From Candidatus Woesearchaeota archaeon (lineage in GTDB: Archaea; Nanobdellota; Nanobdellia; Woesearchaeales; UBA10216), in contig JACPBY010000001.1 of NCBI GenBank assembly GCA_016180065.1, positions 100,851-164,850 on the forward strand: 64,000 bases of DNA, in the 5' to 3' direction. This document shows positions 20,199 through 53,028 of this stretch, piece after piece; position 1 is the first letter of the stretch; the number at the start of each line of letters is the position of its first letter. Below the pieces are notes generated by a model, which saw only the letters and a program-made list of their open reading frames with translations, searched no databases and was not told where the DNA came from. The translations under genes and the position numbers were made by a program.

Positions 20199-20361
20199 CT
20201 GATTTTCCACCAATCTCTGATTGGTGGTATCTGTTTGTGGAAAATCAGGCTCTGAGCAAACCGACCCGAGCGAAGCGAGCATGCAAATCGGCAGCAGCCG
20301 ATTGCACATTCCGCAATGCGGAATTGCGCCACCGGTCTTTGACCGGTGGTGGTCGGTTTGC
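20199..20361 (+). other. cluster of strong hairpins: a 12-bp stem-loop followed by a 106-nt four-helix element
   Basis: ctgattttccac (20199-20210) pairs with gtggaaaatcag (20237-20248). gcaaaccgacc (20256-20266) pairs with ggtcggtttgc (20351-20361) and encloses three hairpins. The strand is not determined. Confidence 0.4.
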
Positions 20362-22057
20362 GATTGACAAAGCGTGTAACAAAAATTTTTCTCCTGTTTC
20401 CCCCGCATCCTTAGCTGCAGCAGTTTTCCTGGCGCTTCTTTTTTTAGCAACCGCTTCACTGCCCGTTCTTGCAGACCAGGCAATATTCGACGGCACTGTG
20501 GTTTCAGGCCGTCAATACAACACCAGCACAGGCCAGGCGTTCACAGCAACATATGTGCAGTCAGAAGCCAAGCTGCTGGTTGAGTTCCCGAGCGAGGCGC
20601 TCGTAATAAAAAACCAGAGCTGCACCATGGGAAAAAGCCTGAAAGGATGCCTGAGCGAGATAAAGTTCAAAGGCTACAATTATTCCCTGCCTGACAAGGA
20701 AGTTTACGACGTCCGCCTGACTCTGAGCTTATTTGTGCCTGAGATTGAAATTGCAAAATACGTGGAGAAGCCAACGATTGATGTTGGCGAGGAAACCACG
20801 GTGTATGTCAACATAACAAACACAGGAAGCGCAGCAGCCACGGTCCATTTCACGGAGAACGTGTCTTCAGGCCTTAAAGCCATTGAGATGCCAGGCCAAC
20901 GCTGCCAGCTTTCCGCGGGCAATACCCTTGTGCTTACCACCGACTTGACTGTAAAAGAGCAGAGGCAGTGTAACTATCTTGTTTCAGCCCTCGAGCCGGG
21001 CACTTACTCCCTGAAATCCACAGCAGCATTCGCTGCGGTTACTCCAAGAGAAACGGCGGCATCTGCGGCAATAAGCGTAAATGCCCTGCCGATGCTCATG
21101 AATGCAACATACCTGCAAAACATTCCCCTTGGTGAAAAAGTAAACCTAACCTTCACGCTAAAATCCGGCGAAAAGATAGACGCACTCTCTTTCGCGGCAT
21201 TTATCCCGAACCCGCTCAAAATTACATCATTCGGTGGGATTGCAGAGCAGGAAAAACAGCCCGGCGGGTCAAAATTAAAATACGGCAACAGGTTCACAAG
21301 CCTGAACGGAAGCATTGACCTGCCATTCACATCAGAAGCAGTAAGCGTTGGAGAATTCTACATAAATGCCGATGCAAGCTGGCTGCTTGGAGAGCTGAAG
21401 CAAAAAGCAAGCCTTGCTTTTCCCGTAAACATAACACTAACAAAGCCTTACCTCAGGGCGGGCAGGTATGATAACCAAACAGGACTGTTAGATGTGGACA
21501 TCGTGAACCCGTCGCACCTTCCGCTCTACAATGTTTCCGTGGCCTTAAACAGCTTTGGAAACGCTACCGGAAAGCCAATCAATGTTGAAGTAATAAGCAG
21601 CCTGAGCCATGCAAGCTTTGAAGCAGCACTGGCAACAGCAGGAAACACATCTTACAATGGCTCAATACGCTACTACACGCCATACAGGCAGGAACTCACC
21701 GCAACCGCAACGCTGCCAATAAACGCCTCGCAGGCAATCCGGAAGGAAGAAGAGCCAGCAAAGCCAGCCCAGCCAACTGCCGAAGCACCTCACATAAACA
21801 CTCAGCCTTTACCGACCTCTTCAGAAAGCGAACCAGCAGCATCTGAACAGCAGAACATCTACGAGCAACCACAAAGAAAAAGCACAGCATCTTCCCAGAT
21901 AAAGCTGGCTGCCGTGATAGCAGGGGCAATAGTGCTCCTGATTATGGCTTTCGCGCTCATAAAGTCAAGGGGCAAAGGCGGCACCGGTCACGAAGGGGCA
22001 CAGGAAGAGCCAACAGGCGCTGAAAGCGAAACAGAAAACACTTATGGCCCAGCATGA
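20339..22057 (+). CDS. surface protein with repeated beta-sandwich (CARDB/DUF11-like) domains, an N-terminal signal peptide and a C-terminal TM anchor
   Basis: The signal-like stretch is SLAAAVFLALLFLATASLPVLADQ. A typical domain motif is VGEETTVYVNITNTGSAAATVHF. The C-terminal anchor is LAAVIAGAIVLLIMAFALIKSRGKGG. The track start at 20186 would translate through the hairpin cluster, so I use the in-frame TTG at 20339. The start remains uncertain. Confidence 0.7.
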   Translation: MTGGGRFAIDKACNKNFSPVSPASLAAAVFLALLFLATASLPVLADQAIFDGTVVSGRQYNTSTGQAFTATYVQSEAKLLVEFPSEALVIKNQSCTMGKSLKGCLSEIKFKGYNYSLPDKEVYDVRLTLSLFVPEIEIAKYVEKPTIDVGEETTVYVNITNTGSAAATVHFTENVSSGLKAIEMPGQRCQLSAGNTLVLTTDLTVKEQRQCNYLVSALEPGTYSLKSTAAFAAVTPRETAASAAISVNALPMLMNATYLQNIPLGEKVNLTFTLKSGEKIDALSFAAFIPNPLKITSFGGIAEQEKQPGGSKLKYGNRFTSLNGSIDLPFTSEAVSVGEFYINADASWLLGELKQKASLAFPVNITLTKPYLRAGRYDNQTGLLDVDIVNPSHLPLYNVSVALNSFGNATGKPINVEVISSLSHASFEAALATAGNTSYNGSIRYYTPYRQELTATATLPINASQAIRKEEEPAKPAQPTAEAPHINTQPLPTSSESEPAASEQQNIYEQPQRKSTASSQIKLAAVIAGAIVLLIMAFALIKSRGKGGTGHEGAQEEPTGAESETENTYGPA

Positions 22058-22146
22058 CCTTTTGTTTCGCTGCGGCTCAACAAAAGCTCAACCAAAATCA
22101 ACAAGAGCTTGACAAAAGAAGCCAGGGCATAGCAGACGAAACTCAC

Positions 22147-31819: not shown

Positions 31820-31965
31820 AAACCTTTTTGCTCGCTAAACCTTTTTTGCTGCGGCAAAAAAGCTTTACCAAAAGCTATACATCCTGTCATGGACAAGATT
31901 AGGCTTTCCGTCAACGCACAAGTCGGCAGTTGCCGGCTGTGCACAATCGGCGCAATGCCGATTCG
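31820..31965. repeat. copy of the hairpin-module family (A/T hairpin plus AATCGGC..GCCGATT hairpin)
   Basis: cttttttgc (31841-49) pairs with gcaaaaaag (31854-62). aatcggc (31945-51) pairs with gccgatt (31957-63). The 12-mer gcaaaaaagctt is identical, as its reverse complement, to 52594-52605. Confidence 0.5.
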
Positions 31966-51195: not shown

Positions 51196-51381
51196 AGGGG
51201 CTGTAGTGCAACTTGGCCAACACACAGCGTTCGGGTGCAACCTTTTTGTTCGTTGCGACTCACAAAAACAAGCTCGAGCCAAGCTCGAGATGCACCCCGC
51301 CCAAAAGGCGGGTGTGGCTTGACCAAAAAGCGAAAAGGGCAGAAAAACGCTGTAGTCTGGGTTCGAATCCCAGCAGCCCCG
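51196..51381 (+). tRNA. tRNA-Pro(CGG) with a 112-nt intron after position 37 (51235-51346)
   Basis: Folded by hand. The acceptor GGGGCTG pairs with CAGCCCC. The D-arm is GTGC-AACTTGGCCA-ACAC. The anticodon stem CAGCG pairs with CGCTG, and the loop is TTCGGG..A. The T-arm is CTGGG-TTCGAAT-CCCAG and the discriminator is G. No CCA is encoded. Confidence 0.85.
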
Positions 51382-52431: not shown

Positions 52432-52481
52432 CAAATCGGGATGCGCCCGATTGCACATTCGGCCCCTCGCCGAATTGTGCC
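52432..52481. repeat. two-hairpin module, homolog of 20284-20330
   Basis: The sequence is caaatcggg-atgcg-cccgattg followed by cacattcggc-ccctc-gccgaattgtgc. The long identical blocks shared with 20284-20330 are interrupted only by compensatory stem swaps and differing loops. Confidence 0.55.
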
Positions 52482-52582
52482 TGCTGTTCCGGCCTGCCCT
52501 GCCCAAGAAGTTTCTCTTCCATGGCAAAAGGTAATGCAGGTTTGTTTTTATATTTTAGCTAACGGAGAAGTTTGATATTTTC

Positions 52583-52626
52583 GGCTTTTGACCAAGCTTT
52601 TTTGCGCGCTCACCAAAAAGGTTGAA
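52583..52626. repeat. A/T-rich hairpin module abutting the tRNA-Leu 3' end; may also serve as its oligo-T terminator
   Basis: ggcttttgaccaagcttttttgcgcgctcaccaaaaaggttgaa is near-identical, as its reverse complement, to 31838-31875. Confidence 0.5.
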
Positions 52627-52808
52627 TGCGGGAGACGTGATTCGAACACGTGAACCCACTAAGGGACAAGCTTTTTCTCAGCCGTTTTCGCGTTTTTGGA
52701 TTGTGTTTCCGGAGAGGAAACACTCATCGGCCGCTGCCGATGTTGAACCTTTTTCGCAAAAAGGGTCACCTGAAGCTTGCGCGTTTGACCAGGCTTCGCT
52801 ACCCCCGC
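52627..52808 (-). tRNA. tRNA-Leu(CAG) with a 96-nt intron after position 37 (52673-52768)
   Basis: Folded by hand on the minus strand. The acceptor GCGGGGG pairs with CTCCCGC (one G-U pair). The D-loop has A14, G18G19 and A21. The anticodon stem CAAGC pairs with GCTTG, and the loop is TTCAGG..A. The long variable arm is TCCCTTAGTGGGTTC. The T-arm is ACGTG-TTCGAAT-CACGT and the discriminator is A. Confidence 0.85.
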
Positions 52809-52827
52809 AATAAGGGAGCTTTACGCT

Positions 52828-52920
52828 CCCTTATCAACCCTTATTACGGATTGACAAAGCAAGCAGAAGAGCCCTTATCAACCCTACGGAACGATACGAG
52901 CTCGCTGCCCTTATCAAGCC
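52828..52920. repeat. three 13-bp direct repeats CCCTTATCAA(C/G)CC upstream of tRNA-Leu
   Basis: The copies are at 52828-40, 52872-84 and 52908-20. The first overlaps the hairpin aataagggag/ctcccttat (52809-34). Confidence 0.6.
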
Positions 52921-53028
52921 TGCGAGATGAGGTTTATACTTAAATTTAACTATCAATTGGTGCGGTGCGGCAAACAAGGCCTTTTTTTTTGGCAAAAAAT
53001 ATAAGCTCAGGCAAGAAGGATTAGGCTA

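Follow-up and report, generated by a model that had tools for sequence, protein, structure and literature searches.

The 64,000-nucleotide stretch of DNA analysed here (the window; C18:100851-164850, contig JACPBY010000001.1 of assembly GCA_016180065.1) carries two intact tRNA genes, tRNA-Pro(CGG) on the plus strand and tRNA-Leu(CAG) on the minus strand. Judged from sequence, both are probably functional genes, each interrupted by one endonuclease-spliced intron that consists mostly of repeat DNA. The source organism belongs to the Woesearchaeota (DPANN), and its assembly, termed G000, comprises 1.06 Mb in 23 contigs with 48.6% GC and is ~88% complete. C-numbers denote contigs of this genome, while positions without a contig are those of the window.

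Default ARAGORN and Rfam at the gathering threshold revealed no RNA gene anywhere in the window. ARAGORN in intron mode called both genes, at C18:152047-152231 (window 51197-51381, plus strand) and C18:153476-153659 (window 52626-52809, minus strand), and misplaced the intron in each. Intron boundaries were fixed by an exhaustive splice test, in which each possible segment was deleted and ARAGORN re-run. The test returned a tRNA-Pro(CGG) with a 111-nt intron and a tRNA-Leu(CAG) with a 96-nt intron, both located exactly at the canonical 37/38 site; removal restores canonical tRNAs, and the spliced exons of both fold into clean cloverleaves. For Leu these are the limits proposed in the initial annotation (52673-52768, 96 nt, after G37). 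For Pro, the interruption after G37 stands but the proposed segment (51235-51346, 112 nt) is too long by one base, since its deletion leaves a 6-nt anticodon loop, base 51235 being G37 itself. No second Pro(CGG) gene and no second A73-type Leu(CAG) gene were found in G000 by ARAGORN in intron mode. The two genes comprise the following parts.

51197-51381, plus strand: tRNA-Pro(CGG), whole gene (ARAGORN intron mode)
51197..51235, plus strand: tRNA-Pro(CGG) 5' exon, positions 1-37, with anticodon C34-G36 at 51232-51234 and G37 at 51235 (cloverleaf, orthologs)
51236..51346, plus strand: Pro intron, 111 nt, site 37/38 (ARAGORN; minimum free energy (MFE) -40.4 kcal/mol, z = -3.9)
51347..51381, plus strand: tRNA-Pro(CGG) 3' exon, A38 to discriminator (splice test)
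52808-52627, minus strand: tRNA-Leu(CAG), whole gene (splice test)
52769..52808, minus strand: tRNA-Leu(CAG) 5' exon, G1 at 52808 and G37 at 52769 (splice test)
52673..52768, minus strand: Leu intron, 96 nt, site 37/38 (splice test, fold)
52627..52672, minus strand: tRNA-Leu(CAG) 3' exon, A38 to A73 (splice test)

Modular build of the two introns

The introns can be described as three layers. The first is a 35-47-nt core hairpin repeat starting 0-3 nt past the 5' splice site, the second a single nested 42-48-nt double-hairpin module from another dispersed family, and the third a tRNA-specific 3' extension that would close a helix on the 5' arm of the core and place GAA on U32-U33-C34.

51238..51268, plus strand: 5' part of the Pro core, CAACC-T5-GTTCGTTGCGACTCAC-A5 (31/31 identical to C5:3537-3567)
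51269..51316, plus strand: nested 48-nt double-hairpin module of Pro, CTCGAGC/GCTCGAG and CACCCCGCC/GGCGGGTG
51317..51329, plus strand: 3' part of the Pro core (GCTTGACCAAAAA)
51330..51346, plus strand: Pro 3' extension GCGAAAAGGGCAGAAAA, whose AAAAGGG pairs with the core CCUUUU arm (folds)
52701..52742, minus strand: nested 42-nt double-hairpin module of Leu, ATCGGC/GCCGAT and GTGTTTCC/GGAAACAC
52673..52692, minus strand: Leu 3' extension CGCGAAAACGGCTGAGAAAA, pairing with the core 5' arm UGACCCUUUUUGCG and with U32-U33-C34, and leaving the bulge AA/A38

Bases 3-33 of the Pro intron display 100% identity to an intergenic copy of the core (C5:3537-3567, E = 2e-11), and the Pro module is inserted between the core A5 and GCTTGACC, the uninterrupted counterpart being C5:3537-3583. 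Other copies of this module are found at C17:69521-69568 (about 90% identity) and, in part, at C1:4353-4378, and the stretch at C17:69502 matches the Pro intron at 92% over 73 nt; the module is absent from the short orthologous introns of two related genomes (G004, G005). Similarly, bases 1-75 of the Leu intron, comprising core and module, are 96% identical to C18:67116-67190 (E = 2e-30), with the module interrupting the core between GGTTCAA and TCCAAAAA, while uninterrupted cores of the Leu subtype lie at C4:30331-30366 and C1:68614-68648. The composite at C18:67116-67190 fills the whole rpL15-secY spacer, in reverse orientation relative to those genes, and ends 0-1 nt before the secY ATG.

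Modules share a common plan of two adjacent 7-10-bp hairpins within 42-52 nt, which is also followed by window segments 20284-20330 and 52432-52481 and by the modules of orthologous introns. The three hairpins of each intron, all six of which had been correctly listed in the initial annotation, are thus explained as one core hairpin plus a two-hairpin passenger. A further double-hairpin module (CAAGTCGGGATGCGCCCGACTGTGCAGTCGGCAACTGCCGACTTGCAC) was observed within a leader hairpin repeat at C11:30560-30640 (minus strand), upstream of the tRNA at C11:30427-30555.

The relatedness of two introns in tRNAs of different identity had been likened to the intron transposition described in Thermoproteales, and a reading along those lines is reasonable. 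The introns are indeed related and mobile-looking, but no direct link joins Pro to Leu: their cores belong to different subtypes, their modules differ and occupy different places in the core, and the nearest relative of each is an intergenic copy rather than the other intron. Direct copying of one intron from the other, moved as RNA or as DNA and aided by the common U32-U33-C34 of the two tRNAs, would explain the shared position, the same AGAAAA/A end and the similar 3' extensions, and related introns in non-isoacceptor tRNAs are the Thermoproteales signature (PMC4090602). It is nevertheless unlikely, as the Pro intron is most closely matched by C5:3537 (100%, 31 nt) and C17:69502 (92%, 73 nt), the Leu intron by C18:67116 (96%, 75 nt), and orthologous introns elsewhere bear yet other core subtypes.

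The core repeat family and its distribution

The core is a dispersed 35-47-nt repeat of the form YRACC-T5-hairpin-A5-G(C/G)T-YRA(C/T)C-A5(CG), with compensatory changes in its stem (for example, CCTTCTTT...AAAGAAG). An nhmmer profile built from ten introns retrieved ~45 copies in G000, and a covariance model built from 32 copies retrieved 41 uninterrupted ones at a cut-off of E <= 0.1, so that the genome holds at least 41. They occupy at least 11 anticodon-loop introns, two T-loop introns (C17:71783-71829 and C7:1166-1212), tRNA leaders, tRNA trailers and intergenic DNA. The genome-wide intron catalogue recommended in the initial annotation yielded at least nine anticodon-loop introns that share the core with the two in the window; all of those listed here are at 37/38 and were delimited by the splice test.

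tRNA-Glu(TTC): 57 nt
tRNA-Ser(CGA): 48 nt
tRNA-Leu(GAG): 52 nt
tRNA-Gly(CCC): 51 nt
tRNA-Thr(CGT): 44 nt
tRNA-Arg(TCG): 54 nt
tRNA-Gln(CTG): 54 nt
tRNA-His(GTG): about 49 nt
tRNA at C11:30427: about 56 nt

The two window introns are approximately twice as long as these 44-57-nt introns owing to the nested module. Within introns the distance from the 5' splice site to the core is always 0-3 nt, and 33 copies run forward on the tRNA strand against 1 reversed. Outside introns, one group of copies directly follows tRNA 3' ends, while reversed copies directly precede the 5' ends of tRNAs Thr-GGT, Glu, Ser-CGA and Thr-CGT. In intergenic copies the TGA/TAA of YRACC is often the stop codon of the upstream gene. 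The remaining core copies in the window are as follows.

52582..52624, minus strand: trailer copy on the tRNA strand, starting 2 nt past the tRNA-Leu 3' end (39.3 bits, E = 1e-6)
22055..22101, plus strand: intergenic copy that begins with TGA, the stop codon of the preceding open reading frame (ORF) (profile and covariance model)
31837..31877, plus strand: copy with no tRNA link (profile and covariance model)

The tRNA-linked copies follow an orientation rule: their hairpin end is always directed at the tRNA body or 5' exon and lies 0-3 nt away from a processing site (RNase P, RNase Z or the EndA 5' site). In leaders they are reversed, in trailers and introns forward, with counts in G000 of ~24 to 0. 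A role of the core as a general terminator was rejected, there being ~45 copies for roughly 1000 genes, some of them inside introns. Two tandem copies at C14:39160-39300, with a period of ~69 nt and each followed by GAAAATGAA(A/G)GTAGGAGTTAAGCTCTGGAGC, may represent a small repeated ORF start or a larger composite repeat.

The tRNA-Leu leader (52809..52930, minus strand) contains three copies of another hairpin repeat, GGGTTGATAAGGG-N-CCCTTATT, the last of which ends at the tRNA +1, and a canonical TATA box (GTTAAATTTAAG) lies upstream of them at about 52935-52950. This repeat occurs as 1-3 tandem copies in tRNA 5' leaders, the last ending exactly at +1, with further sites at C6:12636-12790, C14:155684-155800, C11:77296-77366 and C17:69424-69470. 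Three RNAs or regions behind it (C17:6304, C1:57939 and C14:155684) matched no Rfam family. The reversed core, or the GGGTTGATAAGGG...CCCTTATT repeat, was considered as a leaderless stable-RNA promoter (TTGATAA at -29) and rejected for the Leu locus, because orthologs carry the canonical TATA (GTTAAATTTAAG) upstream and the repeat lies between TATA and +1 as a transcribed leader insert. The reversed core is likewise placed between a canonical TATA and +1 in ortholog leaders, and so belongs to the transcribed leader, not to the promoter. Leader and trailer boxes are not complementary in orthologs, so that a leader-trailer processing stem around the tRNA was rejected, and no rRNA motifs whose flanks could be compared were found in the G000 assembly.

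In a species-level genome collection, the pattern CCTTTTT-N(4-30)-AAAAAGCTYRACCAAAAA was found in more than 117 contigs, nearly all from DPANN metagenome-assembled genomes (MAGs) labelled Woesearchaeota, Iainarchaeum, Micrarchaeota, Parvarchaeota, Nanoarchaeota or Altiarchaeota. Several matches carry "Methanosarcinales" labels on genome-sized ~1 Mb records, labels that are probably mistaken. Among 122 pattern occurrences in the sampled loci (L014-L130), 22 are inside ARAGORN-called tRNAs on the tRNA strand and 1 is inside one in reverse, while 12 abut a tRNA end, with the hairpin end toward the tRNA in 12 to 0. Thus, ~30% of the sampled copies touch tRNA genes, which fill well under 1% of such genomes. 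The lone reversed intron copy seen is located, on the opposite strand, in the D-loop region of a tRNA-Leu in CP061209.1 (L030; 'Methanosarcinales archaeon Met33H', 987 kb, complete), a label that looks wrong for a 1-Mb genome with a DPANN repeat. The covariance model matched 51 of 400-401 sampled genomes of the phylum, these counts being lower bounds. Copies are numerous in the same genus and in some distant families, and no core match was obtained by filtered covariance-model search in the other sampled genera of the same family. Such patchiness is more in keeping with an element that spreads than with a conserved signal of ancient origin. Most copies in low-GC relatives are intergenic, and most of 114 copies from other genomes adjoin neither a gene start nor a gene stop.

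The orthologs of the two tRNA genes were compared in genomes of the genus (G001-G010, of which G001 (JAHFTU01) and G006 (JACPBX01) were deposited as groundwater "Candidatus Woesearchaeota" MAGs) and in the family-level relatives G011, from a sister genus, G012 and, for Pro, G013. They display the following intron states.

tRNA-Pro(CGG), no intron: G003, G009, G011
tRNA-Pro(CGG), D-loop intron only: G001
tRNA-Pro(CGG), core-only anticodon intron of 44-60 nt: G004, G005, G006
tRNA-Pro(CGG), 111-nt intron of the G000 plan with a different second hairpin: G007
tRNA-Pro(CGG), 104-nt anticodon intron (core plus modules) together with D-loop and T-loop introns: G008
tRNA-Leu(CAG), no intron: G002, G003, G009, G012
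tRNA-Leu(CAG), core-only intron of 43-64 nt with differing core subtypes: G001, G004, G005, G008, G010
tRNA-Leu(CAG), core with another module, placed at another site: G007

Exon junctions in the orthologs are precise and without duplication. None of the orthologs of either tRNA has a core-less intron at 37/38, and the family-level relatives have no core-type intron in these two tRNAs.

Introns of this length had been flagged for a check on embedded functions such as a guide RNA, and a guide role finds no support in either sequence. C box (RUGAUGA), D box and kink-turn (K-turn) arrangement are all lacking in the Pro intron; the Leu intron has no C box and a lone CUGA that is missing from orthologs. 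Neither combines C and D boxes as a K-turn with a guide region, neither presents H/ACA architecture, and no Rfam match was obtained up to E = 10. That the long introns hold a functional RNA of some kind, whether modification guide, protein-binding RNA or stable circular RNA, would be consistent with their strong structure (z = -3.9), with the recurrence of the core in several DPANN lineages and with the position of the core hairpin end 0-3 nt from a processing site in all tRNA contexts, from which a discrete RNA would be released. We consider this quite improbable in view of the missing signatures, of modules that are optional and replaced between species, of seven orthologs that lack the intron altogether, and of copies outside introns that lie in both orientations relative to transcription.

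G000 also contains at least seven paralogous class-II (long variable arm) tRNA-like genes with a 20-25-nt T-loop intron and conserved upstream regions, at C5:46095-46180(-), C17:49121-49210(-), C19:25806-25898(+), C14:33628-33740(+), C17:2528-2619(-), C10:3943-4031(-) and C1:53066-53151(-). They have a Ser-type acceptor stem (GCCGGGA or GCCGCGG) and discriminator G73, and their anticodon loops, 7 nt long and free of introns, carry CAG (five genes), AAG or GAT; the genome also has normal A73 Leu tRNAs. Serine-identity tRNAs with leucine anticodons would be remarkable if true, the anticodon and identity calls being provisional.

Predicted splice structure and endonuclease

Both introns open with TG..CCTTTTTG and close with AGAAAA ahead of A38, as initially described, and both fold far more stably than their shuffled versions (z = -3.9; 0 of 200 shuffles reached the same stability). 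In each intron the final 17-20 nt lie outside the repeat and constitute the tRNA-specific 3' extension, which in Pro is conserved as AAAAGGGMAGAAAA in orthologs. The closing helix is formed by CCUUUUUG and GCGAAAAGG in the Pro intron and by UGACCCUUUUUGCG and CGCGAAAACGGCUG in the Leu intron. In both cases GAA of the extension pairs with U32-U33-C34, and AA together with A38 forms a 3-nt bulge bearing the 3' splice site. Position 35 is mismatched (G35/A35 faces A), and the 5' splice site lies in a looser loop. The predicted splice motif of both introns is a relaxed bulge-helix-bulge (BHB), not a strict one, the same arrangement of UUC/GAA beside an AAA bulge that had been drawn in the initial annotation. 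Three pairs and the mismatch recur in 11 of 11 folded intron-bearing orthologs of the two tRNAs as well as in both window introns. In the Leu ortholog of G004, CGGAAA gives U-A, U-G and C-G, so that the pairing is kept through sequence change, which argues for selection on splicing.

The likeness of the 3' ends is partly forced, because both tRNAs have U32-U33-C34, and hence GAA and the AA bulge in each, and because both extensions must pair with the CCUUUUU arm. The sequence similarity is far beyond chance, and the related ends noted in the initial annotation are not special to this pair; the shared ends are best read, from sequence comparison, as the product of a common core and a common need to pair with UUC.

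As for the type of splicing endonuclease, the sole match to the catalytic domain in G000 is one alpha-type EndA of 198 aa with N-terminal and catalytic domains (C18:30290-30931). Its closest structural relatives are the Nanoarchaeum alpha subunit (3IEY_A; best) and Methanocaldococcus jannaschii EndA (1A79), and its catalytic Tyr, His and Lys align with those of solved archaeal EndAs. The passages on DPANN in Kaneta et al. 2018 (PMC5829648) describe alpha4-type EndAs in lineages of this group with highly disrupted tRNA genes. The EndA gene adjoins a gene for an RNase Z-like metallo-beta-lactamase on the opposite strand (C18:29360-30931; L001 217-1788), the two being divergent with starts ~30 nt apart (ends at 1116 and 1147 in L001).

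Several observations weigh against functional genes spliced by this enzyme and built from spreading repeats. The strict hBHBh' motif, with two 3-nt bulges and a 4-bp helix, is not present, as only three of the four central pairs form, and the MFE fold displays no canonical 5' bulge. The single EndA is of alpha4-like size and, aligned to M. jannaschii EndA (1A79), presents no obvious extra loop and no clear L3-type insertion, despite the many non-canonical introns of G000; a second subunit may be missing from the 88%-complete assembly. Within introns, the invariable orientation and placement of the core do not resemble neutral colonisation. Neither candidate mobilising enzyme tracks the repeat: the Y1 (RAYT-type) transposase PF01797 is missing in G000 and encoded by just 2 of the 11 genus genomes, and reverse transcriptase, with one gene in G000 (C3:658-1269, in a 411-aa open frame), is found in 3 of the 11 and not in the repeat-rich G008. 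Finally, a T5-T6 run follows just after the 5' exon, which is odd within a transcribed intron, since oligo-T runs usually signal termination in archaea. Unless oligo-T terminates only weakly in this lineage, production of these tRNAs would come at a cost. Every core-type intron shows such a run within the 10 nt that follow its 5' exon, and more than 12 G000 tRNA genes have it (for example, at window 51243-51247 and 52762-52758).

The T run directly past position 37 in so many genes could also indicate split transcription, in which T5 would stop the 5' half, a start within the repeat would give the 3' half, and the two would be joined in trans through CCUUUUU/AAAAGG, as in Nanoarchaeum. The 3' extension does pair with the 5' arm independently of the internal hairpin, the middle of the intron tolerates any insert, and EndA finds its best structural match in the alpha subunit of Nanoarchaeum. 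In contrast with Nanoarchaeum, where separate halves are trans-joined, the halves here are contiguous and no consistent internal promoter was seen, there being no TATA-like box at a steady distance from the 3' extension; the same element in ortholog leaders sits downstream of a canonical TATA and is evidently read through, and cis-splicing accounts for the same features. Split transcription is therefore very improbable. That both genes are pseudogenes broken by repeat insertions, as their absence from default ARAGORN and Rfam results and the imperfect BHB might suggest, is hardly credible given perfect exon cloverleaves, insertion precisely at 37/38, no other Pro(CGG) or A73-type Leu(CAG) gene found in G000, and a 3' bulge and helix retained in all intron-bearing orthologs despite sequence change.

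For functional, cis-spliced genes, we infer splicing itself and the cut positions in both tRNAs from these folds and comparisons. The alpha-type EndA of the genome would cut the relaxed BHB at 37/38 and RtcB-type ligation would join the exons, while the inner hairpins would be cargo, outside tRNA maturation.

Proposed spread of the repeat and relation to known systems

The intergenic twin of the Pro core at C5:3537-3583 (region C5:3510-3640) is flanked by a 21-26-nt direct duplication (GGACATCCCATTCTCATCCAT) that takes in the start codon of the adjacent minus-strand gene and resembles the footprint of an insertion that made a long target duplication. A 12-nt direct duplication accompanies the core copy at C4:27387. 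Clear direct duplications were found at 3 of 30 non-intron copies in G000 and most copies have none; with only three clear cases in 30, inverted or direct flank copies were rejected as a general insertion footprint. Besides G000, the only genus genomes with reverse transcriptase are G002 and G003, both without the Leu intron, in what is a very small sample.

These comparisons suggest DNA-level spread of the repeats, with both introns created by the arrival of a core. It is possible, though on balance doubtful, that the core is a non-autonomous "intron cassette", whose DNA-level insertion in a tRNA gene makes an instantly spliceable intron. The arriving unit would bring its own closing helix and need only 3-4 bases of exon pairing, and the same element would also land in intergenic DNA and beside the cleavage sites of RNase P and RNase Z. 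Such a cassette fits the lack of core-less 37/38 introns among orthologs, the constant spacing of 0-3 nt between 5' splice site and core with the core on the tRNA strand (33 versus 1), the lack of core matches in the sampled sister genera by filtered covariance-model search, and the lack of core-type introns in these two tRNAs of the family-level relatives compared.

Transposed tRNA introns in Thermoproteales are near-identical introns in differing tRNAs, gained after speciation by copying between tRNA genes (Fujishima et al. 2010, as described in PMC4090602). The present introns resemble them in joining tRNAs of different identity, in using canonical and T-loop positions and in a BHB-like constraint. 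In contrast, the family described here is not confined to tRNA genes but is found after stop codons and in operon spacers, leaders and trailers; its core takes nested modules and spans several DPANN lineages, and some copies have long direct target duplications. As short (35-50 nt), non-coding hairpins that are dispersed, mostly intergenic, patchy, modular and nestable, the repeats are comparable to the REP/REPIN/BIME, Correia, RPE and miniature inverted-repeat transposable element (MITE) types of bacteria. They differ from REP/REPIN in that G000 and 9 of the 11 genus genomes have no RAYT/Y1 transposase, and from bacterial palindromic repeats generally in an extreme link to tRNA processing sites, with the core as the body of putatively spliced introns. 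Unlike MITEs, the core ends in a direct YRACC repeat with no terminal inverted repeats, and target duplications are not short and of fixed length but few, long and variable (12 and 21-26 nt). An unusually long (about 100 nt) intron at 37/38 is likewise present in tRNA-Trp of Haloferax volcanii and other Euryarchaeota, where it carries a box C/D guide RNA (Singh et al. 2004, as cited in PMC4090602), whereas the introns described here have no C/D boxes, K-turn, inner conservation or Rfam match.

tRNA introns made from a dispersed repeat that also fills leaders, trailers and intergenic DNA appear to be undescribed in the searchable literature. The DPANN/Woesearchaeota passages of PMC5829648 treat the enzyme and intron positions and do not mention intron sequence families, and a 2026 Asgard census found no intron donor sequences and no birth route (bioRxiv 10.64898/2026.10.13.758758). 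Here, a donor pool is visible, as intron sequences have intergenic twins of 96-100% identity, related species present empty, minimal and enlarged states of both tRNA genes, and at least one intergenic twin has an insertion footprint. Together, visible donors, differing intron states and a footprint make intron gain and growth testable. The tRNA sets of DPANN archaea are under-called, because standard tRNA finders miss genes of this kind. Repeat-built introns offer a concrete starting point for tracing the origin and growth of archaeal tRNA introns and, if the core does act as an intron cassette, this DPANN lineage would be a live system for their birth.

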